Shown: positions 7,677-39,000, counted from the stretch's first letter. The stretch: 64,000 nt of DNA from Lingula anatina (GCA_051362555.1 CM120644.1:24636534-24700533); one strand, 5' to 3'. Numbers and translations: made by a program. The notes: generated from the sequence alone by a model not told the origin.

Positions 7677-10017
7677 ATGACGTATTGAAATAAAGTGGAT
7701 GGAATTATCAATAATCCGTGGGAAAAAAAGGCTAAAACTTGCTTTTTTTCTCTCGTTTTCACACACTTTGCTGTCAAAGGAGAGAAAATAAATTACAAAG
7801 AAGATCAAATAAAATATATTTCCTTTCACTTGAAACATGAACGAGGACTACATCCTTCACTTAAGGAGAGTTTACGTGAAGTGTAGTTATGGACTACGGA
7901 TGGTAAGGGAATCAGGACATTAACATTTTATAGATTGCTTGTGTCCCATGTTCAGAGAAATGACTCCTTGTATATGAGTTGTCAAAGGATTGTCTGATTC
8001 GTTCCAAAAATTAGGGTTTATTCTTTTTCCTTTTTTTATTTTAAATGGAGTGCAAGTGGACCGTCTTCCAGGTACTAATGCGCTTGATGGGTCCAGGCCA
8101 AACAAAGTGCAATAGATCCATTACTTATTAACGTCTTGGAAGCTATAAAGAACTGATTTTATCAGGACGTTAGCAAACAAATTGAAAGAGTTAATTACAA
8201 TTGCACGCATGGCAATATAATATAATTATATTAGGCTCTCAAAGGCATGTGATCGATATATGTTACCGAAGCTTATGAACCATTTATGCCTAGTTTATTT
8301 TTTGTTTGGGCAAGGGGTTTATTGAAATCATCACTGTACCCAATTAAGAATATGTCTGAAGGATACTATTATTTGTTATCCGTTATCCGGTGCTGCGTTT
8401 CTGTCGCCATGGCACCGTATGTAAACAAGCTGATCTTGCAAAGAGATGCGTGGTCTTTAATTAACCTTGACCTTGAAAACGGACTTACTCTCTTTTTTTT
8501 CCTATGTCGTGTATGTATTCTGGAACTTTGGTATGTGCATATGTAGTTAATTAATATTCCAATGTGAAATACATGGGTTTGGTGTCTCATATACATATAT
8601 ACGTAGGGTTAGAGGGGAAACGGTCAATGCAAATCCAGCTAGATGGAATGTAGAAAACATTTATTTGTTAAAAATAAACTATACATAATCGAAAATTAAA
8701 GCCAGTGACAATTGTATTAATGTTATTGTCCATTTGTTACATTAGTCATTTATTGTTTACTGTATATAATCCCCGTTACTTCAATTTCCCCACCAATCTA
8801 CTTGAATTATATGCTCCTGATTGTGTACAATGTTTTTTTTTACGGATTAAGGTGAATGCATCACTGAATTTAGGAAAATTAGAAGTTATAGTAATACAGA
8901 ATAGCTAGCTTACTTTGGGTCATTTTCGTTGGTACTCATGCTAATTATGTTTTACTGTAACACCTTTCAATAGCTTATGATATCAGTTTTTGGATATGAA
9001 AAAAAATGCTGGCCACATGAAAGGCCTTTGGGAATTTTTTTGGTATTTGGTCATTGTCAAAGAGATTATTTCAACGCAGTTCCCTATCACTCGTCTTGGT
9101 CTTATTAAAGATCATTATACATGACATACCCTGGTATTGATAAACGCTAAAAACAAAGCGTCCCTTAATTTGGCAGGGCGCATTGTCCAGTGAAATGGAC
9201 GCCTTTTCTGCCGTAATGTGCAACGTGCATGCCCACACAGCGCTTGGTTTACCATTTGGATGACCAAATATCCTAAAATCTTACTATGAAGAATGCAAAG
9301 TCCACAATACACATTAATCCCATATGCTAGTTTTTTTTAAGAAAATTTGATAAAATATATATACACTGCATTGCCAGAGCACCTTAACAATACAAAATTT
9401 CAAGTGTACAAAAAAATCTTATAATCAGAAGGCACTTTTTCAATTTTTTTAAAACGGAAACGGAAACTTAAAAGTTGAAATTTGCTGTAACTTATAACAA
9501 ACTTTTATAGACATCACTGAGCATGCATTTGAGTTTATCAACGTAAGGTCCAGTTGATATTACAAGATTTTAATTACAAAAAAAACTCAAGTCATGTTAT
9601 CACAAGGGCAGTAGGAGTACATTTTAATTGAACCAGTAGTTTATAAGCATGCATTTCTCTGCCCATGATGTATTCTTCAAATCATCAACACAGAAATTCC
9701 CCTTTTGTGCAGTGGACGTGGTGTGATGTGGTCGTGAAATGTCCCAGTAAGTCTTGTGGCGCTCTCTGGTCAGATTTTTTTCGCACAAAAATAACCTAAA
9801 GATCAAAAGTATTAGTACACCGATTTCATACATTTTGGTGCAACCAATATTCATGACATGTAACTTAATTTCTGTAAAAGCAAAGAAACAGAGTATTAAC
9901 AGGAAAGGGACCACAGGATCATTTTTATCTTTTTTTCTACTGAATTCTGTTCACTCAAACCCAGCACACTTTCCTTCTCTGCCAAAGGTCTCCTTACCTC
10001 GTGTCCATAGGTTTCCG

Positions 10018-13000
10018 TTACTTCTTCTCGTTCATGTTGTGGTTGATATGATCATCAATGACATCACCAGCGCCACCTAGGACATCAGGTTCTTCAGAAC
10101 TCTGCTCCTCGCTCTCACTGCGTTCATCTTTCTCTACCTACCACCACAGAAATGTTTAAAGATCAAATATCAAAAGGTCAACTTTACAATGTTTTTGAAG
10201 ACAACTCTACATCATGAGCAATACTTTCTAAGCAAATCTAAATTAACTGCCTAAATAATGTCAATTAACAAAATGACAACTTTATAACTTAAACTATGTG
10301 TAACATATTAAATAACTTAAAAAAGATGCAGTAAAAAAAACATCATAGAAAACTTAACTTTTTTTAGCTAGATGAAATTTATTTCAGATTTGTATTTGGG
10401 TTCATTTTCAATTCCAGACTGTCAAAAATAGTCAATAACCTGTGGATTGTGTGCTACTGTTTTCTGTTGCGAGAATTTGTCATTGGTGTGTGTATGTGTG
10501 TGTGTGTACGAATGCTTTAAGAAAAGACTGGAAGGGAGAGGGGTGGGGTGGGGGAATGGGGGGACTGCTGTACTGCTAGCTTTTTTTTTTTTACATCCTG
10601 GGCAAATGAAAAATATATATAAAGAAAAGATAAAGAAATGGTAATAGCCAACAAGAATTGTGACTGCTTCAATGAAGTAACACCCATATACATTTTAAAA
10701 ATCATAACACTGTATAGTGATGTTGACGCACCTTTCCCAAGGCAAGCGAGTTGTAGATGACTCTACTGATCAGATAAGACCAGTAGAAGTGGAGGAGCTG
10801 GAGCACTACCACTGCAGCGATAAACACCTGCATGGAGGGGTACCAACCCATTATTACTGTACTCTCAAATAAAAAAGTATGGATTATCCTAGAAGATAGA
10901 ACAATGGCAACGGTATTGGAGAAACTGAGGCTAACCCAGAATACCACCACCTTGATTACCTGTGCTGATCATTTCTACCTAAGCAAGAATGCCAGATACT
11001 GTACACTATGATCTACAAAACCCTTTTCCTTCATTCAGCAGCCAAGTCATTCTGGCCACTGTTTGTTCCCAATCACAAATATAAACTCTTGGATGAAGAC
11101 AAATTAATGTTATATCATCAAATACAATCTGGCAAAAATGATCATAAAGCAAATTTATTATCAATAATTTGGATTGGTTTAGACCATTAACATCAACATT
11201 TCCATGTAGTTCAATTAAATGTCAAAGTGCAACAAAATTAATTTTTCTATAAAACTGAGTGCACTACCTCAACTTGATAATCTTTCATCGTCATCATCAT
11301 CACCATCATTGTTCCACTGTGGTGCCATTGGATTTCTGATACACAATACAATAGTAATCTTTCAACCCTACTACTACTGAAAATCCTAAGTCAAAAACCT
11401 TAAGCATTTGTCTGTTTAATGAGACACAAGCAACAACTGATAGGTAATAAAACGTTATTATATATATATGTGTGGGTGTGTGTGTGTGTGCATTTTTACA
11501 AGAAATTCATCATTTTATGTTTGAATTGATTTCTGCATTAAATTTATACATTTTTTATTGCTCAATATTGGATATACACAATCTGACAAAATTACATTGG
11601 GTGAAAATGTTATTGGCAGCAATTTCCACCCCAAATCAGGTGTTTATAATTGCTTATCAATAAATAATGTTTCATTAATATTGCTTCATATTTAAAAATC
11701 ATGATTGTCGATTAATTGTATTATTAAAAATATGTTTATCCGATACAAAATAGACACAAAACCTAGCAAAATCTTTAACAACATTCTGAAATAAAGTGCA
11801 ATATTTCATTAGTGCAATCATACCAGTATTGATGGTGGAGTCCACACTTACCTTGTAGGAAATATGATCAGTCTAGTGATGAGCCAGACCAGAGCAAACC
11901 CTACAAACAAGAAATCACACAGCTTCTGCCGACCTGCATATTTTGCCATCTTTGCTGCCTAGAACACAGAAATATATGACAAGTGCTGCCATCTAGTGAG
12001 TAGAGACCAGAGTTAACCAGCAAACATCTACATTTGTTTTCTTTTCCAAACTATGTATCTTTTTGTACATCAGAAGTGTTAATAATAATTAATAATACAT
12101 TATTAATAAAATATATAGTGAAGTCATTTTACAGGCATTTGGTATCAAATTAAAATGTAATGAAGGCTTTTATCAGTCAGGAAGTTTTTGATGGCGTTTC
12201 AGGAAAAAAGCCCCAACAGTCTGTGTGCGTGGGGGGTATTACATCTAGCCAAACGTCAGCAGCATTATGGACAGCTAACATCAGTGTTCCTATCCTGACA
12301 TAGTTACCGGACCAAGACATAGATATCAGGAAGATGGTCACAATGTGGTGCAGGAACGTCTCCCAGAAATCCTGAAAAAGAAATTATAGAGAAAATAAAG
12401 TCATGTATAAAATCAATTAACTAAAGGCTGATTTACTGATAACTAGAGGACCAGAGAGCGATTGCGGGTCCGGATATTGTACCACTAGCTGGAGTAAGTG
12501 CATTCGTATGCCTTTTTCTCCCACCATTTTTTCTTAGAGCAGTTGGACCCCTTTTTAAATAACCGTCGTATGAGCCGGTGACTCCCAGGGGGTACAGAGA
12601 CACCACTTAATATGAACATAATAATAATAATAATAAATTAACCCTTGTATCACCATACTGTACCTTTCTTTTGATGTCAACAAAGTGTGAGGCGGAGAGA
12701 GACCAGTAGAAGGCTAACTCTAACATATAGTACCAGAATACATCATCTGACACATGCTGGGGAGGAAAGAAACCAATATTATAGACATATTTTTCCCTTT
12801 TAAGGCAAAAATGACATTTTGATTTTTAAACATACATACCGGTGTGGATATAACTCCGTTTTTATATTAGCTGCCGTTAAACAACTGTCTTTGCATACAT
12901 TAGATACATATTAGTGTTTGCTCTATATAAAAGCAATGATATAAATGTTTCAGTCACTTAGCCATGGAGTCCATAATACTAGCCTATAGGGAAGAGAGAT

Positions 13001-16000
13001 AGAGTGGATTACCTGGTCTGGATAGCCTATCCAGCAATTCCGTATCTCCCAAAACCATGGTTTCTGCAGTTCCAGAGAAATTAATTAACTTCAACATATA
13101 ACATAATGGTTTCAAAGTAAAACAATATACATTTACTTAAATACACCTTTCATCATTATTTATTTATATAAGTTTGATGATAACAATTAAAATCAAGACT
13201 GTCTCTGCCTTCCATTCTTAAATATCCCTGTTTGAACAGTGTTAACAATGATAGGGTCTATTGTTCCAACTTACATCCCATAATATGGTGATACCGTACA
13301 CAAAGGCTGATAGGTAGAAACAAAACCTCCAGCTAAAAAAGAACAAACAGGAAACTCTACACACTGGAAGTGCTAAAATGCTTCTTTAGTTTGCCACCAA
13401 CATAACGTGTTGCCATGGCAACAGCAATAAGAGACAAACGAATTTTGGGCTTGCTGTTAATTATGGTCTCAGAGGAACATGATGTAAAAATGGATTGTGA
13501 AAGTAACAATAACGATGGATCTGGTTTGGACAGTGTAAAATCAGGTTTTAGCTGTGGTCCCAGAGATGATGTATGCCTACAAATCAATGGTATAGTTTAT
13601 ACGCCATACTGGGCTGGGTTGTATGAAAGCCGTATAGCACTATACACCGGATAACTCTATACAGTGTGTAAATGCCCTATACGGCGTATAGCTAAACGGT
13701 GGATAAATAAACGGTGGATAAATATGCATTGTATAAAGAGCGTATAAACAGGCGGTTAGTTAAACGGTGGATAAAATTGAAGATAGTTGCTATGAACAAC
13801 TTGGTCTATGTCCATATTTGGTTACCCATCAGACACTGTTGCTAAATCACTTTACTGATAAAACAAATCCAAGAAATTGACAATAGATTAATTTCTTTTC
13901 ATATATTATTCATTTTTATTTAGCATTTATGTAGGCCTACTGTTCATCTTTGTCTCAAATACAAGACTTAATTATTGCAATCAAACGCTGAAATGAACAA
14001 AAGAAACTGGCAAACACTGAGATTAAATGCATTGTAGGTGAAAATTCATTTTTAACTTGTAGTGTTAATTGTTGTTCATGAATAATTTTACATGTGAATA
14101 TTATATTCTAAAAGAAATGTAGAGAAATTGCTTTACATTATTTACTATTTTCAATTTTATTATTTATTTTACTACTTGTGCATTATATGTGCTGATGAAA
14201 ATGTACATGTAATGTTATTTATACAAGGGTATCACATTGAACACAATAATTGAACACATTCAATTACGAAACATAATGAATAGATGATTACGGTCTGAAA
14301 CGGTACACAAATAATCTTAATCTGGATCAGTACTTTTATATCTACATATATGTGAAATATTAATGTTTGTTTGAAAAGTTTTGAAATATATCCCCTGGTT
14401 GCTGGTGTTGAGGTGGAAAAAATGTGCACAATGTGGATGCTTCCAGGCCACTGGGAGACAATACATGTAAATCTACATGAAAAAAGAAAAGAAATGAATA
14501 TTAAGAATGATTTGAAAAGGGGAAGGGGGTGGGGGAGACAATAATTAAAACAATAATAATGGTGAAAGCACATCATTTTTGGAACATTTTCTTTTTTTTT
14601 CAATATAGTCAAAGAAATATTCAGTTTGCATTTATGAGATAGAATATGATAAGGTGATGAAAATAAAATTCAATTAATATATTAGCATTTAATTCCATCA
14701 TGTATAGTCCTTATTTACTTTGCAGTTTAAAAGGGCCTACTTTTTAATAACCAAATAAATAGAAAGTAAAGTAATCAACACATTCCCAAAGTTTTAAAAT
14801 GGAAATTAACTTAATTTTTGTAATTATGTGGTTCTGCAATGATTTTGTTATTCATTAAAAAAAGATTATAGACTATTAAGGTAGATTGCATTAGCTGCAC
14901 CTGCATAAACATTGCTTGCACATTCAGTCACACTGAAGAAGCCAAGGTCATGGCCACAAAAATGGCCGACTTTCAAAGTTGAACCACGAATGCTGCAGAT
15001 GTTGGACGTGTTATTTACGGTGAGCTCTTCAAATTTATGCTTTGAATATGTAATAAAGATCAATATCTTTGTGGTCACATATAGCCTGAGCATTCAAACT
15101 GTGGTATTTCTTTCTGTTCACCAATGCAGGCTCATTCAACGTGGGCACTGTTATCCTAATGCGAGTTCCGTCCACAGCCGATGACCCCAGGGAATCTGGC
15201 AATCCTAAAAAAAGCCACGCCGGATCGTGGCCTTCTTCCTCTCTCTTCTCTGTCTAGGTGGACTATACTGCTGAGGATTCCTGTGGAACCTCAGCAGGCA
15301 TGCCATTTTTATCCACTGTATAACTATTTAAACGACCTCCCTGAGACGTATAACTTTAACCGACCGTTTAGCAGATTTATCCACCGTATAAAGTTATACG
15401 TCTTTCATGCAACCGTATAGGAACCGTATAAGTTACACGGCTGATTTATCCAGCGTATAGTGCTATACGGCTTTCATACAACCCAGCCCTGGGCGTATTG
15501 CCATCGGTGCCGTTGTTCTTCACAGGGTTATTAAGTGCTGTACCTGAATCTGTTATGTCTAAAAATTACAGCAGGCACATTAAAAAATATAAAATGTTTG
15601 TTAGGAAGCAGGTGTAATTTGGACTGTTTATATCTGACATATTTGAGTGTTTCCAGGCAGCTGGCAGCACAATGTTAACATTATGATATATAAAACAGAA
15701 ACTGAGAGAGATAATCTGAGGTTCAGACATGAAATAGAGCATGTAAAAAAATTGTCACATCTGTATATGTGAACTAACTAGTTTGTAGTCCGAGGGTCAA
15801 ATATGGCAACCCATTACAAAAATTGTCGTCTAAACCGCTTATAGACACTGAATAGATTTCCCGTGGAGAAGTATTTAATACCCCCGTCACACTTATTCGG
15901 AATCAGCAGGAATGAAGAAGAATGAGCACGAACGATGAATTTTTAAAATTCGAAACACATTCGGGGGGAAATTTTCAAATTGACCTTAATTATTGTAAGA

Positions 16001-19000
16001 GGACCGTTGGAATACTCAGAATGCGCTTGAATTCGCCTGGAATGATGAGTGCATTTTCGACTGTGTAGCTCTCAAAAGCAGTTCGAATGTAGTTGGAAAA
16101 TTAGGAATATTTATAATGCCGTAGAAGGCAGTAAGAATATTTAGAACATACTTTGAACGGCGCACTAGTGTAGTTCGATTGCTGGCAAAATTATTATTTC
16201 AGCTCATCCGAGGCACATTCGAAACATTCTGGCGGAGTATAAAATCATTTAATGCCCGTCACACTAGAGGCGGAATGATTAAGAATGGCGTCGGAAATAC
16301 AATCCTTTGTGCGTTCCAGGATGTTCGAATAGCATTCTAAAAACATTCTAAAAATTCTGAGTGCATTCCAAATATTTTAACACATTCTTGTGGCCGGCTC
16401 GAATGTTTTTGTCATGTCAAAAACTTTCGAAGTGCATTCCAAGAGGAAATTTATCGAATGACATTTGAACAGTATTCTAACTGCACTATGACTGCATTCT
16501 AAATATTCTCACGGCCTTCCGACAGCATTCGAAACATTATGATCAGTTACCATTCCTGTGGCGTTATCTATACACTCTGGGCATCGTGTTACATTCTAAA
16601 CATGTTAGAAAGTAATTTTAATTAAGTATTTTAGGTATTTCAGCTGCATAATGTTTGAATTCTTTATATTTCAAACCATCATTGGCAGCCATACCGGGAG
16701 CAGTTAACTGCATTTGAGTTCGCTTCGTATATCATTCGAGGCATCTTCTTACATACTTCTGCCTGTATTCGGCCAGCAGTCAAACCACAATCATACGGGA
16801 TTTGAATTTCATTCGGAATATTCTGACTGCAATTTGAAATTCCCTCCCGATTATGGCACGAATTTTTCAATTTATTCATTCTGGCTGGTTCTACCTATAT
16901 TACTGCTGGTTCCGAATAAGTGCGACGGGGACCTTAAGTCGCGCACCAGTTCAGAATGGGTTAAAGTATTTGAAATGCACTCAGAATTTTTAGAATGCTC
17001 TTTGAATATCCAGGAATGCACAAAGGATTGTCTTTCCGATGGCATTCATGTTCATTCTGTCTCTAGTGTGACGGGGGTATAAGCGGGTCGGTTCTGTTTG
17101 ACCCTCCGACTACGGCAGTTAGCCCACTGCTGTGAAAGCGGCCTAATAGAAACAGCATGTCACAAGATTTGAAAACTAATTAAACTGTTCAAATAAATTA
17201 CCAATTATAACTATATTCTAAATGAGAAAACAAACAAAATCACAAATGATGAGTAGCCGCGTTTTACGCAATCATAGCAATCTCTTCATACCTATTTTCC
17301 GAGAATTTTACAATATCACTGGGTCTGCCCAGATTCCTCCTGAGTCGAAACCATCGCTCTACGCGCCGCCTGGTCCAATCTGTTTGTTTTACTATGGCCT
17401 GAAATAATGGGAAAAACATTTAAACTTGAGTAAATATAACAGTATAAAAGTCAACAAGTACAGTTATGAAACTGTATTTCTAATGATTATGAGCCAAATA
17501 TTTATTTTAACGGCTGCATCAAGATCAGTATAAATTAAAATAACATAATATAATAACATACTTTTTATAAATCCTGTGTAGCCAGTTTTACCAAGTGGAA
17601 ACTAGATGTGATATTCTTGCGCTAACAAATCCTTTAGAATTGTCAAAAATTTCCATTTAAAAGAAAAGTTTGCATTTTAAAATCCGCTCACCTGTAATTG
17701 TTTATCACTCGGGTTTTTATTTCTTTTAAATTCACTTTCTAATATGGGATTTTTCGGGACTTGAACAATTACTTTTCCCTTCACTCCCAAATGTACAGCA
17801 ATAGGAGAAGCTATGTACCTAGGTAAAGACATAATAAAAACTAATAATGTGCCATGAATATGGAATCTGGTGAAAGTGGCCATTATTAACAAGATACTGC
17901 TCTGGAGACACTGGGAATATTAAAATAATTCATTCTCAGCCTATGTGCTCAGAATCTTAATGCTCTTTCCATGATGCATTGCTTACTCAAACAGTTCCTG
18001 GTGACCTCCCCGACTCCACAAGCGCGCCTTTAAACGGATTAAACCTCTGCTCCAAGGTTTAATTGCTAGGTCCTACAGCGACGGCGCGAGTGGAGGCGGG
18101 GAGGCCATCAGGAGGCATAGACATCACTTTTGAACTGTGGTCGGCCATATCCATTCTGAATGGGATCAAACTGACAGCCGAGTATCAGCGGCGAGGGCCA
18201 GTGTGTTCCCCACATTATATAATCTGTACTGAATTACGTGAATGTAAATAGGCAGGTGTCTCAGTGTTCCTAGGTAATGACACAGAGCCACAAGGTAAAT
18301 ACAGATGACCTGTCTGTTATCAAACAGCAGAGCAGAATGAATTGAACATCTTACAGCAGCATCTATTATTTACTATGACATAATTAATACCCTTCCATTC
18401 AGAAATGCACAAAAGCTAATACAACACTACATATGACTGTTATAAGACATTAACACTCAAACAATGGGTATCACTTCTATCTTGTTAACACTATTTCAGC
18501 AGTGTGCATCGACTGCGGTAGGGCAACCAATTTTTTAAATTTTTAATTAATTAATTCTTATTTATTTATTTATTTTATTTATTTATTGTCATTTTTTTTT
18601 TTTTTTTTTTGCTTATCCAAATTACTTCTTTTCGTCGCTTTTTTCTCTATATGGTTTAAATAGGGATAGAATAAGTCTAATCAACCCTATCCTGTTTATC
18701 TAAATTAAGTCAGTTTAAGCATTTAGCTAAACTGCTGAGTGTTACCACTACCCCAGATTGGTCTCAGTTCACATGTCCTACATAAAGAGAATTTGGATTG
18801 AGGACTTAAGGTCAATCAAAAGAAAAATCAATCAAGCCACCTTCACCCCATTAATTTGCCACTGATCCCCAATATGCTATACAGTACCTTTTATTGTCAA
18901 AAGAATAGAACCATTCATTCATTGATTCAGATTACAATTATTGATTCAATCATCGTCACAACGGGCTAAGAATGACTGTTTTGCGGTAAGTATAGTTACT

Positions 19001-19922
19001 GGCGCTACTAGTAAAGTGTTAGCAGAAGTACATATCAGACATGCTTTCTTTCATTTCCCTTCAATTAACAGTATTAAAACTGATAAGAAAGATAGCAACA
19101 GCACGTTGTTAAACTTCGTATACCACAGTGTACAGACCGCACAAAATTTTTGATACGTGTAATTATTTTAAATTGAGTCGCGGGCATGGGCACGCGGCTC
19201 GTAGTCGTAGTGTAATTGTCCCTATCTCTTTAATTGGTCTCTGTCAACTTAAAGTTTACCTTACTTTATTGGCCTTTATCTAAAGTTACGATAATTTGCG
19301 GCCACGCGGTCAGACACGCCAATATCTGAGGTATAAAGCCAGGTAGCAGCTAAGAAATAAATAGAGTTTTAGATTTTATAACGAAGCTGTGGTTTTGCGT
19401 TACTTTTCTCTCCGGGCATAACTCAAGTCGTGGACTGAACCTTGAAATATCCAGCATTGGGATTAGAGCCCATATATTAAATTATACCCCGCGGTATCTT
19501 TAAGAACCCAGTACAAGGGTGCCAAGATATGTAATAAAAACGGGAAATTCAAAAAATATCTTATTTAATTCAAGACAATGAGTGAATAACCCATGCAATA
19601 CGACCTCTTACATTTTAACATTAAAAGCATATGCAACATTTTAATAGACTGGTGTTTAATGTCCATCTTGACCATCCAGTCTTAATCCTGCTGATAAGTG
19701 GGCGTTCACCAAACACCTGGTCAACACAAATACTGACCTCTCGAAGAGTGGCCTTAGCACCAAAAGCACTGCCGCTATTGGAATAGAATACCAGATAAGA
19801 TCTTGCACTTGTGGATGATATATTCCATTATCTGTATTTTCTAAATGTTTCCACGTAAAGCCTTCTGGAAGCCAAAATTTTTCGTTCCAAAACAATGCAC
19901 ATAACGTCCGCCAAGCTTCCAT
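10018..19922 (-). CDS. Ceramide synthase (CerS5/6-like, homeodomain + TLC/Lag1 domain), duplicate copy A, 10 exons, 377 aa
   Basis: Exons (minus strand): 19738-19922, 17692-17818, 17292-17398, 13275-13332, 13013-13063, 12664-12756, 12243-12371, 11852-11958, 10732-10888, 10018-10137. All GT-AG; total 1134 nt, open. Motifs [19 protein letters not shown] (Hox helix 3), [31 protein letters not shown]. Confidence 0.93.
12442..12511 (-). mobile_element. 3'-end fragment of the Helentron/HINE-like family seen at 53831-56033
   Basis: aactagaggaccagagagcggattgcgggtccggatattgtaccactagctggagtaagtgcattcgtatg is the near reverse complement of ~55962-56031; absent from the matching intron of copy B. Confidence 0.75.
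13612..15488 (-). mobile_element. Decayed PIF/Harbinger DNA transposon with transposase remnants
   Basis: TIR ggctgggttgtatgaaagccgtatagcactatac / gtatagtgctatacggctttcatacaacccagcc; CTG duplicated at 13609-11 and 15489-91; minus-strand peptides [37 protein letters not shown] (~15060-15203, frameshifted) and [14 protein letters not shown] (~14430-14472) match HARBI1-type DDE motifs; empty site in copy B near 40320. Confidence 0.88.
15772..17125. mobile_element. MITE family 2 copy, split by a nested insertion
   Basis: actaactag..gagggtcaaatatggc..gaagtatt[insert]gcgggtcgg..tttgaccctc; an uninterrupted homologue is at ~37230-37405. Confidence 0.7.
15879..17079. mobile_element. Non-autonomous Harbinger-like element (1.2 kb) with TAA target duplication
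   Basis: TIR tacccccgtcacact / agtgtgacgggggta; TAA at 15876-78 and 17080-82; internal TIR-like copies at ~16254 and ~16910-16931; interior rich in gaatg/cattc. Confidence 0.82.
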
Positions 19923-25618: not shown

Positions 25619-28329
25619 TTACTTCTTCTCATTCATGTTGTGGTTGATATGATCATCAATGATATCACCAGCGCCACCTAGAACATCAGGTTCTTCAGAA
25701 CTCTGCTCCTCGCTCTCACTGCGTTCATCTTTCTCTACCTACCACCACAGAAATGTATACAGATCAAAATATCAAAAAGTCTCTATTACAGTGAAGCAAG
25801 TCAACTAAAATGAGCAATACTTAATAAGCAAATCTAATTTAACTGCCCAGGAATTTTAATTAACAAAATAACAACATGATAAAACAAACTATACATAAAA
25901 TGAAATGAAAATTACTTTTAAAAAATAATGCATGAAGTTAAAAAAACAACACTGGAAGCTTAAATTTCACTTAAAAAAACAGTTGAAAATTATTTCAGCT
26001 TTTCATTTTTCATTTTTAATTAAGATTGAAGTTGCAGCAATGGGAATCAAAAATCTTAATTGTCAACAATTTATAGATTGGGCCCTATTATTGTTTCTGT
26101 TGTGAGGAACTGTCATTTGTATGTGTTTGTGTGTTGCGTGTGACTGCCTATAGAAAAGACTGGAAGGAAGGGGGGTAAAGGGTTGGCAAAATGGGGGGGG
26201 GGGGGGGGGGGGGGGGAGGGGTTAGGTTGACAGGGGAGGAAGGGGGTAGAAGGCAAACATAAGGCTTATTATACATGCATACACATACCAAGGTGGTCGT
26301 TTTGCAAGCCCCACCCTTCACCTGCATGCACATGCACAAAACATGACCTATAAGTATATATCCATTAATGGCACATGCACTTTTTGTACAGGGGTATGGA
26401 GTTTAATTCTGCTGTGTATAGGGTGTTAGTACAGCACCGATGCATGGGGTCGTTATGTTGCTGAAAGCCGTAGCTACAACAAGTCTCTGGAATACTGAAC
26501 AATTTGAAAGATAACTGCTTTCAAGATACCATGTTTTGGTGGGGTGGGGGGGTGTACATTCATTTACAATGTTTATTTTGAAACCATAGAATTGCCTCTA
26601 CTTAATAGTTAAATGCTTTATGGTTTTCAAAATGTTTTCATCTTTGATTTAAAAAAAAAAAATATGGGAATAAATGGACTAATCCCTGTTATTATCTCCT
26701 CCACGGATTGCCCCTCTATGCAACTTGTAAAAAGGTGGTTGGTATGAAAATAGGCGACTGCACTTTATTCAATTTCTTCAGTTATATTGCCAAGAACAAG
26801 AAAAGAATAAAAGTTCCATATAAAATAAGCTGTTGTTATTTAGGTTAAGTCCAGTATATTCTGCATGTTACTTGAATGTTTGAAAGTTATCTATACTTCG
26901 CAATACAGATGAAAAGTGGAGTGCTGGGCATTGCTTCACTTCAGTGCCTGTCACAGGGCAGTGTTCAGCTTTATGTAAGTTTTAGCTTTGTTTTATGTGA
27001 TGGCTCCCTGAAATCCTCCTGAAAATTTAACATTTTCAGTATACTGTTCTCCTGTGGAAATTCCATAAAAAATCAACCAAGCATGATAATAAATCTGAAT
27101 GCTACAGCATCAAACTGGCCATGAAGTTGTGAAGACAATTCTTCTAAATGGTAACTAACAATAAACATAATAAAACAACATAAAAAGCCCCCGTAATATT
27201 TGGCAACTTAAAGTAAAGTCAATTAATGCTAAAGAACCAAATGCAGAGCTAAAAAAAACTTATTTCACCACACAGCTAACAGAAGTGCAGGTTAATACTC
27301 TATTACCTAGTGCAAGTTAAATAAACAATAAGAAAACACATGCTCTCAGACACACACTGTTAACTATCAGCAGAAACCATCACTGGTGGGAGGAATTGAA
27401 ACACCACACCCAATTATTATCATTATATACATATACATATATATATATTCCAGAGCACCCTGCAGTAAAGCACACACACAACAACAATTCACTGCACTAG
27501 ACAATAATTGGTAAACAGTTAAATCAATCAACACAAGGAAATATTGAAGTCTGACTGAGTATACGTCATATGATATTAGGGATTTGATCTGAACTGCAAA
27601 GTCAATTAACTGGCACATAAAACATTGACATAATTTTCTATATCCCCTTCAGGGCTTGGCGTTAAAGGTGGCTTGCCGGCCTGGGCCACTTAAAACCAAT
27701 ATCAGGCCAGTCAATCACAGGGGTTACTGGTCCCAGGGGCAGGTAAAGTTTAATGTGCCAAATAACCCTTGTAATATCTACCAGACCTCCCTGGGCTGTG
27801 GAGATAAAATTAGTGTCAAGCCCTGGTCCTACTGAGATAAAGCAAAATCCCATTATTGGTCTCAAGTTGTAGGTGCCACACATCGTAACCATGGACTGAA
27901 TGGTTAACATGTAATGGTTAATATCTCATATACTCCAATTATGGGAGGAAGCTAAAAGCTACTCAAACATAATATATTTAAAACATCAACATTCAGCAGG
28001 TTTATGAGTGTCAGACATTTAGGAAAGATTGGCACAAGGCTATCATAGGCTAAACACTGCAGAAAGGTTTCTTATGGTTTGATTAGTTAGTAAAAATAGT
28101 CACCAAAAGGAACTGGAAAGCCATTCACTGTGAAAGACGTGATGTTTACAAATCACAACCTCACAATACCAGCCATCCACATATATTAGGAAGAAGGAAC
28201 TGTACAACCTGGTGGGACCTATTTCACCAGACGTTTCACTGCTTAGCTAATGCTGCAGAACTTCCACAGCCAATAATATTGAATATAACGAAGGGGACTC
28301 TGTGACAGATGGCTGAGTGGTGGACAAAC

Positions 28330-28374
<45 letters not shown>

Positions 28375-31300
28375 CACCAGGGTATTAAAACTGAATTGTG
28401 TGCTTTCAACTGATACAGGTAAGACTTAATAACAGAACAGATCCATTCCCTTACAAACAATTCCTACGGGGTTTCCTTTTGGACTCTAAGGGACTCTTTA
28501 GGATTTCTATTGGATTCCAGAGGCGGATCCAGAGATATTTTCTGACAGTCTTCCAAATTATCTTTGTTGATCCATCCTCGATCCGCCCCTGGATTCCTAT
28601 CCAGGACATGTCCTACAGGATTACTATCTAGGAAATATGTCCTACAGGACTACTATCTGGGATATATGTCCTACAGGATTCCTATCTAGGACACATCTTC
28701 TATAGGACCCCCTTGGGATTTCGGACCAATTTTCCCACAAGTCTCCCTGCAGTAAACTTCTGTAAGCGGGGTTGTGAAGCAAACATTTCCCAGGTGGTCG
28801 AGTCCCAGGCCCAGCGTGAAGCACGGCGTAAGCACATGTTATTTGACTCTGCAGTTCACATGCAAATGTTACATATTTGGCTGTAACCTAGCAACTGTGG
28901 CAGGTGTGACAGTGTGGTTTCTATGGTAACACAGGCCGAATGTTTTTATATGGCAACACCACACTTGAAAATTGTGACTTGGGACATCTGCCAATGATAA
29001 GTATGGATTATAAGCTGTAGATGGGGAAAAATGCTCAGAAATAAGTTTAATTATCAACTGTGCTTTCTTGTTTTTAGTGTGATAGACCCAAGCTAGAAGA
29101 AATTCCGCTCTCTTGAATTCAATGTTTTTAAGTGATTTGCATGTTGTTGTACTGCTAGCTTTTTTGAATGAAATAAGTAAATAAAAACAAATAAAAGAAA
29201 CAGATAAAAAAAAAAGGTAATAGCCAACAAGCATTGTGACTGTTTCAGTGAAGTAACACACAACTACATTTAAAAAACATAACACTTTATAGTGATGTTG
29301 ACGCACCTTTCCCAAGGCAAGCGAGTTGTAGATGACTCTACTGATCAGATAAGACCAGTAGAAGTGGAGGAGCTGGAGCGCCACCAGTGCAGCAATAAAC
29401 AACTGAATGGAGGGGTACCAACCCATTATTACTGCACTCTCAAACACACATGAACGGATTATCCTAGAAGATAGAACAATGGCAAAGGTATTGGAGGATT
29501 TTTTCATTAACATTTTCTCTTCCTTTCATATCTGTAAAAATAATTAACGGAAAGGAATTCAGCTTCTGAATCAGTGCTTCTCTTTGAAATATCCTAGAAT
29601 ACAACACAGTGGCAAAGCTAAATGACATCTTGGTTATTTTCTTTTTTTCTTTCAGACTGTTTTGTTGGCCTTTCTGTTTAAAGGGGTACCGTCTTGTCAT
29701 CAAGGCTCAAAGAGTAACCCTAGAATATAGAATGTTAGCAAAACTTATTGCAGCTTTCAAATTCTGTGACTGTGTTTCCATTTTACTCATCAAAAGATTC
29801 TGTTGAGGAATGGGCAAAACCCCTTCTTCCCTGATAGCCAACAAATTATCTGGCACATTTTTCATTCCATGTTGCCAGAAATATTTGTTGTTTTCCTTTT
29901 GAATTTTCTAATTGTTGTTTCATCACCTTAATATGTCTGCAATAAATTAAGCACCTTTACATTGGTTATTCACTGGTCTCCACAATGCAAAGCAATGACT
30001 GAGGGCAAGTAGTCTATGTAGGCAAACAAAGAATGCGCCATGGAGCCTTAACCTACCAGCTAGAGAAGCAGATGAATTGGCAGTAGCTCATGCACTGGTG
30101 TTTTCTGGCATTGTTCCTCTAACAAAAGCTTAAAATAGGATAGAATTTTCTGAGAAACCTCTGCTTTTATTCCTTGAACCATATAACCAATTACCATGTA
30201 TGTATCTCCTTCCAAAACGAAACATTTACCCATACATATCTGATCAACAGCTCAACACTGACACATCTTGTACTTCTCAATAACAGTTCACAGCTGCTTT
30301 ATTGGTACAGAAAAATTTGACGATCAAAAGAAATTGTTTACAAAGTGCTGAAACAGTGTGATCTTCTTGCCTCATGCTTAGCAACATCAGTGCTACTTGC
30401 TGTTGTTGGATGTTCCATATTGCTTGTGCAACACATTCTACAGTCACATCTACCACAATATGGCTGTAATCTATACATTGTGCTGGAGCTCACCCAAACA
30501 CACTCCACTGTCACACCTAACACAGCCGTGGTGTCCACAGGACTCTGATGAGGTAGGTGAGAGGGTGACCAGGTAAATGACATCATTAAATAGGGACATT
30601 TCATTTATCATACAGATTGCAAAGCATGCTCTAGTGTTGGCAATGCACTGTCACACACAAAACATTCATATGCCACAAGTACACGTTCTGAGGAGATGAC
30701 ACTGATCTCATCATGAAATTCAAAACAAAAATAAACACATAAAACACATACAATAACAAGACCAAAACAACATAACACTAATAAATGAAATAACACTGTG
30801 CCATGCTGAACAGTACAGTGTAACAGATGGATATATCACAGACATTGCACAGACACAAAACAGACATTGTACAGACATCACACAGACATTGAGAACACAA
30901 AACAGACATTGTACAGACATCACACAGACATTGAGAACACAAAACAGACATTGTACAGACATCACACAGACATTGAGAACACAAAACAGACATTGTACAG
31001 ACATCACACAGACATTGAGAACACAAAACAGACATTGTACAGACATCACACAGACATTGAGAACACAAAACAGACATTGTACAGACATCACACAGACATT
31101 GAGAACACAAAACAGACATTGTACAGACATCACACAGACATTGCAAACACAGAAGTGACATTGTACAGACATCACACAGACATTGTGAACACAGAATAGA
31201 AATTGTACAGACATCACACAGACATTGCAAACAAAGAACAGACATTGTACAGACATCACACAGACATTGCACAGGACACTTATACACAGACTGCATACAT

Positions 31301-31641
31301 GTCTAGCCTTCCAAACAGTATTCATCAATGAATACACAGCTTGTACCAAACAGGTGGCCAATTAACAAAACACGTTCTGGGACATTTTCTGGAACATCAT
31401 ATGATATGATCTTAAAATTTTAATCCTGAAAAGCAGTTCTCATTCAATAATTTTACTTCTGTCCTCTTTTATGGGTATTTTTTTTAATCACATGTGATCT
31501 AAAATCCAGTGGTCTTAGGGCATAACTTAAAGCTAACCAAAACAATCCGGAAGCACCCTTTCTTGTAAAAATGATAACATGCATATATCAAACATTCACC
31601 TATAACCTCTTTATCCTAAAGGCAAACATGCCACCCCCCCC

Positions 31642-31695
<54 letters not shown>

Positions 31696-33020
31696 ATGGA
31701 ACTACAGGGTAAACGCCTGCATGTTCAACATCATTTGAATTAAATGATAAATAACCTCAGTTTGGAATGCATACTTGGCACCTAATACAAGATGGGAGAA
31801 CCTTGCATACATAGCATCTTTTACATAAGAGAGGGGGACACCTTGCTCACATGGTATACAATATGGAGAGGGCCAATTAACACAATACACCTTGCAGCCA
31901 GATGCAGTATTGCAACTGTAGAAGCAGCAAAAAAAGATGTCAGACTAGCTCCAAGCTGATGTTTTGTAGTGTCCTTTTACAGCCACCTGTCCAACCTGTG
32001 TATATGATGAGCTTACATGCTCAATGTAGTGTCAGTTTTAATGACTGGCCATTTATATAGGTTTCTATTTTTAAATTATTAAAATAATGGGATAAACTGT
32101 ATGCCTTCATGCAGTTTCTGAATATCTTATTTCTTAAAATTATTTTTTACTCCACTGCTTTGCTAAGGCCAAAATAAGAAATCCAGATTTTGATATAAGT
32201 TGTACAGGAGAGAAGAAGATAATATAGTTCTTTATTACTTTTTGTTTTTCATTATTGAGTCTCCAAAACTACACTGAATTTGTATGCAGTGATATGTTAA
32301 AAGACTGGGTCATCATATATCTGGTTATTTATATGTAAAATAACAGAATAAATGACATAAACAGTTTCAGAAGTTAGTTGTCATCGACACAAAAAACAAG
32401 ACAAAAACGCTCACAAAAAGAACTTCACTTCAACATCACAATTCAGTATCACAGACAGTATTCAGCCATGCATACAAAGAGGCATGCAACCACCATATAG
32501 AACACACTCAGACCAGCTTAGCGTCAGTTCACATGTACAGAAGTGCTGCTACAACCATTAGTGTGGCTCTAACTGCAGGCATGAGACCAGCTTTGGGTGA
32601 GATCTACCTGGCAAATGTCTCACATCACAGTACAACATTACAACGGTCCTCTTCTGAACTCTACCAAAGGTCTGGAGGATCTCACGCCTGCTCTAGAAAC
32701 TGAACACCACCCTTGTTAACCCTGAGAACAAACCGTCCACCGCAAAGCCCGTTTCACATTTGATCATGCGTTACACCACCGTGTGCTAACATGCCCCAGC
32801 CCTAGCCCACGTAGCATGCAGTCATTAAGCAGTACAAACTGGGCACAGGGAATGTGGAGGTGGTGCCGACATGCTGAAACATAGGGCCACTGGATAAGTA
32901 CATTGGATTGACATGGAAGACAGGTTTTCTATGTGATAGTGCTGACTAGTGAAGTAAGGAAGAGAATTGATTATGTAGCAGTGTGTGTCACAGTGAGAGA
33001 GAGAGAGAAGAGAGGATAAG

Positions 33021-33063
<43 letters not shown>

Positions 33064-36000
33064 AGAACATCATTGTTATCTTGCCTGTCTGGTATATTTA
33101 TATGTTATAACACTCCTTTTCATGTTAGCTGCAGTTAGAAGTTTTAGATATTAAATAACACTACTAGTATTCAAAACTGGTTAATTTCTCTCCTTTAAGG
33201 AAAGATGATTTACCTGCTAGAATTTTTTCAATGAGAATCTATGAAAGTCTTAAAAAGTACCCCTTTTTGAAGTTTGAAGTAGAGCCAGAATTTCTAGTGA
33301 AGAATCCAAGAATAAAATAATAAGATATAAGTTAATAAACTATGTTAAATCTAGGACTTGGCAAGAAAGCGAGTTAGACCAGTTGTAGTTACAAGATATT
33401 ACATAACGTGCAGCGGAGAATACAGTGACTCAGTACTTATGGTACTTATCACAAGTTAAATGTTATGTTAGTGGGTAGTTTAAGAATGTTCTGAATGCTA
33501 TTTGAGTATTATTTTCACCCTGACTATCTGATCACGGGAGTAACAGGACACTTGAAGAGCATTCACAACCCGCTGATGTGGGGACTAACTAGTCTGCTGA
33601 TCAAATATGGCTGACTCACTTCAAAGCTGGCCCAATAATCACCTAACAGACACTGAACAGATTCCCAGGGAGGATTACATGGCAAGCGTTCAGTGGAATT
33701 TTCAAGTGGGTCAGCCATATTTGATCCAGGTTGGGTATGCTCTCTTGTTGAATGAATGAACATGTTCTACCAATCATTTCAAATCGAGTTTCTATTATAA
33801 GGGAAAAATAACTTCTATGTGCATTTTTCTGCTTGTCATATTTCACTCACCATAGTTTAACTTTTAAAGGTAAAAGGCAAGGTTTCCTCTTTATCAAAGC
33901 AAACTCTGCATTTAAAAATATCCAAAAAATATCATGAAGTTTCAATTACTTTTAAGGCATTGCTTTAAGGCACCCATACAGATATTCTTTGAATTACAAC
34001 TCCCAAAATAACAAATTTTTAAACTCTTTTTTTTTTTTTTTATACATCAAATAATCTATTCCCCACAGTAGTTTCTATCAAACTTCCCCAGTGTCAGTGT
34101 GCAGGAAACCTGACATGGTGGTCAAATGGGGCTGTGTCTACTGGCCCACACCCTGATTCTACTTGGAGACACGGCAGGATTCTACTGCAACTAGCCCTAT
34201 AAACTATACCCAGGAAACTAGCTCTATGATATGCTATGATCAAAACCCAGGAAATTAGCTCTATGATATGATCTATAGCTGTATGCGTGGAAACTAGCTC
34301 TATGCGTGGAAACTAGATCTACATGTGGAGACTAGCTCTATATGTGGAGAATAGCTCTACAGCCTGTGGAGTGTATGCAGGTGCAATCAGACAAGAACAG
34401 TTGCCCAGAACGGTTTAGGTCCAAAATACCAGACAAACAGTTGGGTTGGCCACCAATTACAAGACTGTAGAGATAACTGAGGACATAATTCTTCCTTTTT
34501 TATTATTAGTCTGTGCTCTCAAAGATACACTAAACCTTAAATATGACAATATTAAAAAAAACTGCATTTAAGGTTTTCATCATGGCATATTTCAAAAACA
34601 TATTATCATGTAAATGTTGGACGACCACAGGTTAAGTTTTTAGACAATTAATGCAGATGCCAAAGTATGAACTAAATTCTGCAAATCATGATAATTTATT
34701 GTGGACATTGTTTGCATATCTTATGTCAGTTTCGAGCACAAGGTGGCTGCAGAAGTTACTTCTGGTTGTCTGGTGACATAATTCAGACTTGAACCAGTTT
34801 AGGTCTATCCTTGTCTGAAGATCTAAACGTGCATTAAATTCTACAGAAGTGAGAAAGAGGAATAAAAAGAAGAAGAAGAAGAAGAAGAGAAAGAGATTGG
34901 AAAAGAGATGGAGAACAGGTACAGAGAATAATAAGGAGAAAAGAGCTGTGAGGGTGTTATGTGGTTGCCATGGTGCAGAGAGCAGCAGTGAGGTCTGCAG
35001 TGTGCACTGATGTGCTGATAGTGTATATATATAGTGTGCACAATCAATGAGGCTGCTGCCACTGGTGATAACTATGATGGCAGTTGTCTTTAACTCGAAA
35101 TCATTCTGGAGAATTTCTAAGACCATTTATCAATGAAAATAGGTAGAGATGCGCTTCCCATAGTTGATGAAATCATAAACATCAGGTTTTGCTTCACTTC
35201 TCAATTGCTGTAGTTGAGATAGGTTCATATGATCCACAATCATGATGGGAGCACATTGTGATTGCTGTAGTTGAGATAATATCACAATCATCACGTAGGG
35301 GGGAGGGGAGACAGTGCTATACGCCTACCTTGCCCTTAAGAAAAGCTGTGAAGGCAACTTTGCATATCAAATAAAACCAAAATATGTGGAGCACCAGTAG
35401 GGATGTCAGCAGTATGTTATACACCCAGTAAAAGGGGTAAGTGAAGGGGTCCACCTTCACTGTGGTGTGCCCCTCTAACAGTGTGCTGCGGATCACCCTG
35501 GAAGAAGACAAGAGATTGGAGACGACGTCAGATTCACTTCATACAACAGTAGCAGGTCTTTGCACTGAAAACTGAAATGTCTCTAATCATGGTCCTTTGA
35601 TTTAAGTGATTTCAAGATGATGAAAAAAAAAAAACTTTTACAAATGGGGCTCATGCAACTGATGTGAAATGGGAAACATAAAACGGGGTCCAAGGGACCT
35701 CCCAGGACCTGAGGTTTACGCATTTTTGGCTCCAAATAGTCAGAAATCAGCAGAAAGTTGGAAAAATCTCATCCGCGTAGTATCTGACTCTGCGTGGCAC
35801 TAACCCAGGTTACCACCACCTTCATTACTTGTGCCAATGATTTCTACCTAGGCACAAATGTCAGATACTGAACACTATGATCTACAAAACCCTTTCCTTC
35901 ATTCAGCAACCAAGTCATTCTGTTTGTTTCCAATCATAAATATAAACTCTTAGATGAAGACAGAGGCTGGAAGACTAAATCTATGTTATATCATCAAATA

Positions 36001-39000
36001 TAATCTGGCAGAATTTATCACATTTTTACAAATATTAAATTGGTTATGATAATCAATAATAAATTGGGTACATGATAATCAATAATAAATTGGGTACATA
36101 ATAATAAATTATAAATTGGTTACATTATAGCTATTGACATCAACATCATACTATTCAGTTAAAATATCAAAGTGCATCAAAATTAATTTTTCTATAAATC
36201 TGTGCACTACCTTAATTTTTCAGCCCTACTGAAAATTACTGAAAATTTCAATCAAAAACCTTGTGCATTTGTCTAAATGTTTGATAAAACACAATTAAGC
36301 AACAACTGTTAAGTGATAAAACATAATTATGTATAAGTGCATCTTTGAAAGAAATTTCATCATTTTCTGCTTGGATTTATTTCTATATTGGCAATCCATC
36401 TTATGTGATCAATATTGAATAAACATAATGCAACATTAATAATCATTATCAATTTAGCTAAAAAAGGATTTCTACCTGAATCAGGTGATCAGTTGCCTGT
36501 CATTAATATTTGATAATATTGCTTAGAGCCTTGAAGGTAAGCATATTTCAAAATCATGACTGGCACCATTTCAACAAAAAAGATCAATTCTTAAAATTAT
36601 AATCTACTTATCCAATGCAAAATAAAAACAAATCCAAGTGACATATTAAAAGGTTTCAGTCTGAAAGAAAGTGCATCATTTTGTCAGTGCAATTGTGCCA
36701 GTAAACCAGTAATAAAGGTCCGCACTTACCTTGTAGGAAATATGATCAGTCTAGTGATGAGCCAGACCAGAGCAAACCCACCAAACAAGAAATCACACAG
36801 CTTCTGCCGACCTGCATATTTTGCCATCTTTGCTGCCTAAAACACAGAGAATAAAACATTATTTGATGGTTTTCTTCTCACATTAAACATATTACCCAGT
36901 TTATGAAACACTAAACATGGTCCTTGTCACAAAAATTAAATAAATAAATAAATAAATAAAAATAAATAAAATAAAATAAATTAAAAAATAAACTTCTACT
37001 TCATAAATTATATTATCTAATGCAATGTGTAATATGGCAGAAATATATGACGAGAGGTGCCATCTAGTGAGACTTCAGCCACCAAAAGTTACCAGGAAAC
37101 AGCCACATCTGTTTTTTTGTTAAAACTCAGAACCCTGTTATGTATCTTTTATGTATAAAAGGATTAAACATATTGTTTACAATATAATATTATACTAAAA
37201 TCGATTCGACGGATATTTGGTTAAAAGTTGATCCCATTCAAAACAGAAGACTTACTAGTCCGAGGGTCAAATATGGCGACCCACTACAAAGCTTGCCCTC
37301 TTATCCACTAATAGACACCAAATAGATATCCCGTGGGGAAGTATTCAAGTGGGTCGGCCATATTTGACCCCCAGACTAGTTAGTTCCCTATTCTGAATGG
37401 GACCACTGAGACATGGTTCTTGTCAGTCAGAAAGTCCTCCAACATCTAACAAACTCTGTACTATCTAACACATGCCTTTCATGTGTGTGTGTGTGTGTGT
37501 GTGGTGGTGGTGGTGGTGGTGGTGGTGGTTGTGGTTGTGGTTGTGGTGGTGGTGGTGGTGGTTGTGGTGTGTGTGGGGGGGGGGGTTTACCTCTAGCCAG
37601 AAGTCAGCAGCATCATGGACAGCTAACACCAGGGTCCCTATCCTCACATAGTTATTGGACCAAGACATTGACATCAGAAAAATGGTCACAATGTGGTGGA
37701 GGAACATCTCCCAGAAATCCTGAAATTATAATAAAAATTAATTAATTAACTAATTTATCCAAGGCAGATTTGTTGAAATAACATTTCTTCTCAGTTACTG
37801 TGGTATTAAGAAAAGTTAATGGATCCAACTCCTCTTTTGGAGATGCAGACATACATGAAAATATGTACAGAAACTAAAATAATAATAATAATAATAATAT
37901 TAATAATAATAATAATAAAACACATCACCATACTGTACCTTTCTCTTGATGTCAGCAAACTGTGAGGCAGAGAGAGACCAGTAGAAGGCTAACTCTAACA
38001 TGTAGTACCAGAATACATCATCTGTTACATGCTACAAGAGAAAGAAATCAATATCTCAGACAAATTTACCCTTTTTTCTAGCAGTGATGACATTTTAAAA
38101 TTTCATCACACATATTTGAGCAGATGTAGCTCTGTTTTTATTTTAATTCTCTCAAATAACCTGTTATTGTAACTCCAACTGCCAACCTGAGTAATATACT
38201 GGTACATGTATTCTATAATAGCAAAAGCTTATTAAAAAAAAAAAATTAATTGTTAATTTTGATAAAAATGCCCCAGTTTAAGTTCGCCTAGTGGATTACC
38301 TGGTCTGGGTAGCCCATCCAGCAATTCCGCGTCTCCCAAAACCATGGTTTCTGCAGTTACAGAGAAATTTATTAACTTCTACATATAACAATATTTTCAC
38401 AGTAAACCGTATACATTTACTTAAATCCACTTCTCTTACTGTTTAATCAGAAGTTTGATAATTATGATTGAAATCATCACTACTGATACTTATGTAAAAT
38501 GATTCAACTTAAATGTGCATTCTTGCAAATAATAATGATACAACATATAATATCAACAAATAATATTAACAAATATATAAACAAAGTTGGGAAATATACT
38601 AATATTACTAAGTGAAAAAACTTACTTTAACAAATTGAAAATTATCTGCAATTTCTAATTTTTATAAAAACAGAATTAAAACAACATGTGATTGACAAAA
38701 ACACTGTTGTGGCTAAATCATTAGTATAACACCCAATGCAAGGACTTAAGAGGGCAAGGGGGCACTGAGGTCACACTCACAACCAAAGTTGATCCACAGA
38801 CTAGCTAACACATCTGCAGATCAAATATTGGTGATCCACTTAAAAGCTTCACACATAATCTCCTAATAGACACCAAATAGATTTACTGCAGGGAATTATG
38901 TGGCAATCTTTCAAGTGGGGAGGCCATATCTGATCCGTGGATCTGCTGGTCCGTAGATTAACTTTAATTGTGAATGCAGTCAGAGAGACTGAAAGGATGC

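Follow-up and report, generated by a model that had tools for sequence, protein, structure and literature searches.

The ceramide synthase (CerS) locus analysed here raises the question of what becomes of a duplicated gene that has kept one of two alternative exons, and in particular whether copy A of the pair is being turned into a gene dedicated to one splice form, as the first-pass annotation proposed. The window is the whole stretch of Lingula anatina DNA that was analysed, with a length of 64,000 nucleotides.

Structure of the two gene copies

A tandem duplication was found in the window, with copy A at about 8980-19990 and copy B at about 22420-46420, and the collinear blocks of the two were 69-87% identical. 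Both copies are CerS5/6-like genes placed in tandem on the minus strand. The annotated features were as follows:

10018..19922, minus strand, CerS copy A: ten coding exons, 377 aa, open frame
19922-19738, 17818-17692, 17398-17292, 13332-13275, 13063-13013, 12756-12664, 12371-12243, 11958-11852, 10888-10732, 10137-10018, minus strand, exons of copy A
25619..46355, minus strand, CerS copy B: exons 1-8, 9a, 9b and 10 (25738-25619)
46355-46171, 42283-42157, 41863-41757, 40042-39985, 38350-38300, 38031-37939, 37719-37591, 36836-36730, minus strand, exons 1-8 of copy B
35329..35497, minus strand, exon 9a of B: length 169 nt, flanked by AG and GT, start phase 2 and end phase 0; no counterpart in A
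29307..29463, minus strand, exon 9b of B: length 157 nt, with B-type RNA reads from X14 and from X17
10732..10888, minus strand, exon 9b of A: sole exon 9 remaining in A, 92% identical to 9b of B; RNA joints 8-9b and 9b-10
34960..35105, minus strand, alternative last exon after 9a (database model P0002): tblastn in two frames, 90% and 81%; model only
26199..29144, no strand given, second B-only block of 2.95 kb in intron 9b-10: contains the last exon of RefSeq isoform X3 (27018-26974)
9796..9997, minus strand, intron in the 3' UTR of A: donor some 21 nt past the stop; 6 X11 reads with 6 starts, canonical ends and A-type letters

All splice sites of A and B were GT/AG and both frames were open, with a single stop in A located at its end. 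The translation of B with exon 9a was exactly XP_013382240.1 (Lingula anatina ceramide synthase 6 isoform X1) and that of B with exon 9b was exactly XP_013382241.1 (isoform X2). The translation of A was XP_023931178.1 save for a duplicated stretch within the homeodomain of that model, which is absent from the window. The TLC domain (PF03798) scored above cut-off in B with 9a (169.9 bits), B with 9b (163.5 bits) and the RefSeq model of A (156 bits). The homeodomain (PF00046) was found above cut-off in B at residues 87-126, and 1 of its 40 residues differed between B and the A of the window. This domain content is that of the homeodomain-containing CerS2-6 type, in which the homeodomain lies between TM1 and TM2. 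A PF00046 search of the RefSeq model of A, which carries the duplicated stretch without a counterpart in the window, gave no match. Homology between A and B stops about 65 nt 5' of the start codons (window 19986 and 46422), and A may use a different promoter.

Elsewhere in the window, the plus strand at 325-660, 5078-5323, 7341-7676 and 5558-6923 showed PAN domains that exceed the Pfam cut-off, a weak match to the chitin-binding domain CBM_14 and Pro/Thr/Met-rich repeats; these PAN-domain exons downstream of A likely belong to a secreted matrix-type gene. A short element of intron 6 in A (12441-12510), marked by very high X6 DNA depth and many loose-ended RNA reads, is a high-copy repeat and recurs at 55962-56032. 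A dispersed repeat of about 200 bp was present in six copies that were 72-93% alike (778-987, 4413-4628, 20494-20708, 42411-42614, 45118-45331 and 57621-57841), and two stretches, 30837-31271 and 54665-55703, consisted of tandem arrays whose periods were close to 42 and 145 bp.

The deletion in copy A

The two features at the deletion were as follows:

10889..10945, no strand given, deletion junction in A: made up of 33 nt from the 9b acceptor, a 9-nt filler, and sequence from intron 8-9a of B
29497..35799, no strand given, B-only block of 6303 bp: contains exon 9a, the alternative last exon and, in two copies, a 24-mer resembling the 9b acceptor

The first-pass annotation had described a 33-nt match followed by a 9-nt filler and a return to homology at B 35800, with the intervening part of B, exon 9a included, missing from A, and self-BLAST of A against B confirmed this arrangement. 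B 29464-29496 and A 10889-10921 were identical at 32 of 33 bases, the unmatched filler occupied A 10922-10930, and past it B 35800 onward was the homologue of A 10931 onward. The self-BLAST alignments on the two sides were B 29145-29496 with A 10566-10921 (87%, E 2e-118) and B 35800-36853 with A 10931-11974 (69%, E 2e-104). The block without counterpart in A, B 29497-35799, was 6303 bp in length and included exon 9a (35497-35329), and intron 8-9b measured 7266 nt in B against 963 nt in A. Since this block held the last exon that follows 9a and the 2.95-kb block held the last exon of X3, A was left without any annotated 3' alternative of B. Within B, a 24-nt unit occurs three times at 29463-29742 (79% alike, spacing 130 and 126 nt) and contains the AG of the 9b acceptor; its two upstream copies are possible decoy acceptors and lie inside the block missing from A.

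The junction was checked for misassembly in DNA reads. A 238-bp contig from run X6 (sample S4, study P3) spanned 10775-11012 with no gap and one other letter, thereby bridging the junction, and X6 also produced distinct contigs, some with A letters and some with B letters. Sequence words of 9500-12400 were found at 0.49-0.85 in 9 DNA runs from 6 samples and 3 studies, with one of them possibly being the source of the window. The junction and the deletion are real. Almost no words were found in run X10 or in X20 and X21, which bear the same species label; this does not prove absence.

The breakpoint had been called base-resolved, and this holds for the edges of present-day homology. It need not hold for the original event: no microhomology was found at the junction edges, the filler has no proven source, and the introns of A and B are only about 70-85% alike, so that later changes or a loss in several steps are possible. 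No target-site duplication was found at the edges of the block in B. The filler 9-mer had 2 further exact matches within the window against 0.61 expected. A templated origin was considered from an inverted exact copy at 31755-31763, within the deleted block, and was rejected as the match does not extend and is near chance.

The sharp edge of the junction is not special: A retains no more than 10 bases opposite each of four B-only blocks larger than 1 kb (22748-24606, 26199-29144, 29497-35799 and 38477-39905), of which this is one. When a 6303-bp loss was placed across the coding span of B, 956 of 14435 placements spared the ten shared exons and all 956 removed exon 9a. A targeted process is therefore unnecessary, and the deletion as an event is of an ordinary kind.

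Frame and age of exons 9a and 9b

Exon 9a has 169 nt and exon 9b 157 nt, and the two share start phase 2 and end phase 0. Joint inclusion of the two produced 10 stops and skipping of both produced 3 stops. By their sequence, 9a and 9b of B are homologous tandem alternatives that are frame-incompatible together.

The protein sequences of 9a and 9b were identical at 18 of 53 residues (34%), compared with 44 of 53 (83%) for 9b of A and 9b of B. In the exon-9 tree (47 rows, 53 columns) 9b of A grouped with 9b of B with support of 100/99, and a clade of 9a and 9b of B that excludes A was rejected (p-AU 0.047). The far greater divergence between 9a and 9b than between the two 9b copies, together with this rejection, argues for a loss of 9a in A. 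The reading that both exons predate the gene duplication, with A losing 9a instead of B gaining it, is thus well supported, in agreement with what had been proposed, and so is the proposal that A is confined to one isoform, as only the 9b form is possible in A. A single Lingula clade of 9a and 9b was not rejected (p-AU 0.30), and 9b joined the bivalve X2 exons with support of 46/71. The candidate orthology of 9a and 9b with the oyster exon pair was set aside on these two values, since the tree at that depth does not establish it.

Predicted role of exon 9

Exon 9b matched human CerS6 at 284-330 and exon 9a matched it at 297-332 (E 4e-4). The encoded loop had 15 residues in 9a against 11 in 9b, the latter resembling CerS5/6, and 10 of the 11 loop residues of A were the same as those of B with 9b. 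In a rodent CerS5 row residues 299-309 read ESWEMIGPYPS, and the aligned stretch had 11 residues in B with 9b and in A and 15 in 9a. The predicted fold of the 9a form (mean pLDDT 88.8) showed a helix at 261-299, a loop at 300-306 and a helix at 307-340, so exon 9a (about residues 287-342) is predicted to span the end of TM6, the loop and TM7. The predicted fold of the oyster isoform P0007 matched CerS6 with E 5e-22.

In the CerS6 structure the acyl tunnel is reported to be sealed by the TM6-TM7 loop, which limits chain length (PMC11919693). The 11 residues 299-309 of CerS5 are reported to confer chain specificity, and the CerS2 version placed in CerS5 led to use of very long chains while the reverse chimera was inactive (PMC7876150, citing Tidhar 2018). 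From this mammalian work on the same loop, we infer that 9a and 9b would give different acyl chain lengths.

Active site and selection in copy A

A change in the active site of A was located at the following codon:

12264..12266, minus strand, codon 243 of A: Asn replacing the first Lag1p aspartate (CerS6 Asp239); Asn also in XP_023931178.1

Asp was present at the equivalent of Asp239 in all 253 non-Lingula rows, this count being derived from the 262 of 266 proteins long enough for alignment after exclusion of 9 Lingula rows; B also had Asp. The Lag1p histidine pair (His211/His212) was kept in A and B. The Lag1p aspartate pair (Asp239/Asp242) was complete in B, whereas A had Asn at its first position. 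Across 10 CerS6 active-site positions the copies differed only at Asp239, and the equivalents of His211, His212, His238, Asp242 and Arg275 were intact in A. Asp239 has been reported as essential and as lining the sphingoid (long-chain-base) pocket (PMC11919693), and its yeast counterpart is D283 (10.1101/2023.10.24.563787). Because of this position and reported role, D243N likely impairs catalysis; the mildness of an Asp-to-Asn change counts against it. Going by these residues, A is a CerS by descent and is not classed as a working one.

A total of 87 sites were conserved in at least 85% of the 253 homologues. A alone departed at 6 of these and B alone at 0 (binomial p 0.031). The A-only departures were Q200H, M212T, V238M, D243N, E250D and L312V, and four of the six fall in exon 7, the catalytic exon. 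With two shared departures the total for A was 8 of 87, and at least 8 were reached by 17 of the 253 other rows, so a count of eight appears uncommon among homologues and not unique. Per-branch rates rest on outgroup counts: over exons 1-8 with 11 outgroups, A-side changes numbered 6-11 and B-side changes 1-4 in 11 of 11 comparisons, with p<0.05 in 3 of 11.

A and B with 9b differed at 33 of 377 residues, with dS 0.20, dN 0.041 and a ratio of 0.21, and amino-acid-changing differences per site were fewer than silent ones (Fisher p 1e-11). Under neutrality about 88 amino-acid-changing differences (0.10 × 884 sites) would be expected on the branch of A, and both branches together had 35.5. The open frame, the ratio of 0.21 and a number of changes far below the neutral expectation indicate that A is not long dead. 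Silent divergence was uneven among exons (p 0.029), with 0 of 58 bases differing in exon 4, 2 of 107 in exon 8 and 16 of 129 in exon 7. Exons 4, 8 and 10 (13275-13332, 11852-11958 and 10018-10137) were 97.5-100% identical between A and B, and exons 1, 2 and 7 were 88-90% identical. This patchiness suggests gene conversion between the copies, in which case the dN/dS value carries less weight.

Transcription and splicing

Three RNA runs (X11, X14 and X17) were aligned to A at 9000-13400 with 85% likeness, so that reads of B also align. Between 6 and 25% of each run was read and the read counts are tiny. At the diagnostic sites of exons 5, 6 and 7, B-type reads were 3/3, 3/3 and 2/2 in X11, 2/2 and 4/4 in X14 (exon 7 had no reads) and 17/17, 13/13 and 13/13 in X17, and no A-type read was found at these sites in the three runs. 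In X11, all 6 reads over three UTR sites were A-type, as were 2 of the 7 reads in exon 10 (the other 5 being B-type) and both reads in exon 9b, which share one start. Splicing of A from exon 8 through 9b to exon 10 was detected in X11, and 2 of 9 reads in exon 8 of X14 were perhaps A-type. B-type 9b reads were 2 of 2 in X14, including an 8-9b joint, and 11 of 11 in X17. Spliced transcripts of A thus exist at low abundance, and B still uses 9b.

Depth of exon 9b was below that of exons 8 and 10, with 2 reads against 9 and 6 in X14 and 11 against 15 and 18 in X17. The lower depth leaves room for 9a, and divergence also biases depth; use of 9a rests on the RefSeq isoform X1 model together with this reduced depth. 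Run X17, which has the same species label, carried many letters present in neither A nor B, a hint of a divergent lineage, and had no A-type read at the sites shown except for one shared letter in exon 10. Given these private letters, the animals of X17 may not carry A.

Fate of copy A

The claim that A is becoming a dedicated gene was not supported. B keeps both exons and still splices 9b (X14 2/2, X17 11/11), so the partition of 9a and 9b between the copies is one-sided, and the claim is further opposed by D243N and the five other A-only changes at sites that are at least 85% conserved.

The account we prefer has about an even chance of being right. A Lingula CerS gene with two alternative exons 9 was duplicated in tandem, and a redundant A would have tolerated large intronic deletions, one of which (6.3 kb) took 9a as a by-product. 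The loss is proposed to have been tolerated since B still supplies both forms. The active-site aspartate of A also changed to asparagine (D243N), which likely weakens or abolishes its catalysis. The open frame and the near-identical homeodomain suggest that A is still kept, perhaps for a non-catalytic role, and selection on its non-catalytic parts may have retained it for such a role or a marginal one. B would keep both exons and switch ceramide chain length by the choice between 9a and 9b. A would thus be a likely weak or inactive enzyme, and it cautions against taking a duplicate for a specialised enzyme on the grounds that it is intact and locked into one isoform.

The strongest competitor is the reading of the first pass, in which A is an active CerS dedicated to the 9b product and represents an early isoform separation that would end with B making the 9a form. 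It is rather unlikely, even though several observations agree with it: the open frame with dN/dS of 0.21, the 8-9b-10 splicing of A in X11, a loop matching that of B with 9b at 10 of 11 residues and the absence of both alternative last exons from A. Further hints of a shift are that both 9b reads in X11 are A-type despite a majority of B-type reads in exon 10 (5 of 7), and that exon 9b in X14 has roughly one third of the depth of exons 8 and 10; however, these hints rest on 2 to 9 reads, A-type reads are a small minority, B splices 9b in X14 and X17, and D243N and the five other conserved-site changes are found in A only.

Less probable still is a recent release of A from selection, with the deletion and D243N as early damage in a pseudogene to be. 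The excess of conserved-site changes on A, its low expression, the end of homology about 65 nt 5' of the start codon, by which A may lack the promoter of B, and an open frame that gene conversion could maintain would all suit such decay. Against it, the ten exons of A have no stop, frameshift or broken splice site, spliced A transcripts are present, the region was found in the 9 DNA runs (6 samples, 3 studies; one possibly the source of the window), and D243N is common to the window and the RefSeq model.

A third reading, in which A would be a re-purposed acyltransferase whose Asn alters the acceptor and whose histidine pair goes on accepting the acyl chain, is given a small probability. Asp239 is described as lining the acceptor pocket and His211/His212 as first-step residues (PMC11919693), the histidines are intact in A, and changes cluster in exon 7 (8 amino-acid differences), but relaxed selection fits the same pattern and A expression is low.

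The last, that the junction is an assembly error, that A and B are alleles or that 9a was inserted into B after the duplication, draws on only the general risk of a polymorphic genome and is largely refuted already and highly improbable, given the X6 contig across the junction and the separate X6 contigs for A and B letters, the presence of both genes in RefSeq, the A/B dS of 0.20, the 34% identity of 9a and 9b against 83% for the 9b copies, the p-AU of 0.047 against an exon duplication after the gene duplication, and block edges in B without a target-site duplication.

Exon versions in other animals

Database isoforms differing only over this stretch of 50-59 residues, with a common boundary, were found as annotations in 9 species of 3 further phyla:

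Saccostrea cucullata, S. echinata, Ostrea edulis, Crassostrea virginica, Magallana gigas (five oysters): two versions each, database isoforms
Pecten maximus, Argopecten irradians (two scallops): two versions each, database isoforms
Priapulus caudatus: two versions, database isoforms
Lineus longissimus (nemertean): four versions, database isoforms

A single version was found in 8 other species with at least two records (Mya, Dreissena, Mercenaria, Ruditapes, Haliotis rufescens, Patella caerulea, Mytilus galloprovincialis and Ptychodera); this count was drawn only from clusters of sequences about 90% alike and does not prove absence. In the exon tree the oyster and scallop X2 exons formed one group (98/91) and the X1 type another (99/98); a further group (97/93), with long branches, joined three Lineus exons. 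One ancient origin and repeated origins of the exon versions are both possible under this tree. In the hemichordate Glandiceps several CerS6-like records were present, apparently from separate genes, and the loop of P0064 and P0108 was four residues longer than that of P0159, as in Lingula 9a compared with 9b.

It may be, at somewhat less than an even chance, that many invertebrates set ceramide chain length by a one-exon swap, brachiopods, bivalves, nemerteans and priapulids having two to four mutually exclusive versions of the exon for the loop and TM7, so that splicing would perform the task of six genes in vertebrates; A would then be a derived copy that has shed the switch, either as a pseudoenzyme or as an enzyme with an altered acceptor. 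If true, this would explain how animals with few CerS genes could produce several ceramide classes, and such isoforms would be natural chimeras for decoding the chain-length code. The choice of acyl chain length by CerS is only partly understood and is relevant to drug design against CerS6. Isoforms that are identical outside the loop and TM7 would make the question testable with natural sequences, such as Lingula 9a with four more residues and the four versions of Lineus.

Comparison with known systems

A search of the main texts of non-subscription papers, which covered mutually exclusive and tandem exons as well as CerS of oysters and other molluscs, Lingula and lophotrochozoans, found no report of a swappable specificity exon in CerS among the papers listed. 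The Lingula CerS isoforms are already in RefSeq, unremarked. The removed exon 9a and the active-site change in A, rather than the deletion, are what deserves follow-up.

Duplicates that lack one homologous exon have been described as a class (PMC4494069, Abascal et al. 2015; PMC4417111). As in the splice-isoform separation of PMC4494069, the Lingula duplicate lost one of two mutually exclusive homologous exons. In the complete cases given there (CALU, U2AF1 and others) each paralogue retains a different exon, whereas B of Lingula has 9a and 9b intact and uses 9b, and the pair does not have the different exon per paralogue that complete separation requires. A and B resemble instead the partial cases of that paper (CDC42, FYN, SLC8A3 and CACNA1C/D), and differ in that the reduced copy carries an active-site change.

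With tandem duplicated exon substitution (PMC9741552), B shares two homologous tandem exons of the same phases whose joint inclusion breaks the frame; the literature search found no CerS example of it, and Lineus has up to four versions. Skipping of CERS2 exon 8 in breast cancer (PMC7876150) likewise alters ceramide output through CerS splicing, but it is reported to delete the Lag1p motif with loss of activity, and Lingula swaps in a complete alternative loop and TM7.

Mammalian CerS5/CerS6 (PDB 8QZ6) share with Lingula the TLC and homeodomain Pfam matches, the histidine pair and, near CerS5 299-309, the 9b loop. Chain-length preference is described as spread over six genes in mammals, whereas B places the loop and TM7 in alternative exons of one gene, and A, unlike CerS5/CerS6, is without the first Lag1p aspartate. 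A possible role for A may be seen by analogy in Drosophila Schlank H215D, which is catalytically dead and is reported to retain homeodomain DNA binding (10.1101/2025.07.24.666377); Schlank H215D is an engineered histidine mutant, whereas A of Lingula is a natural paralogue with a putative nuclear function.
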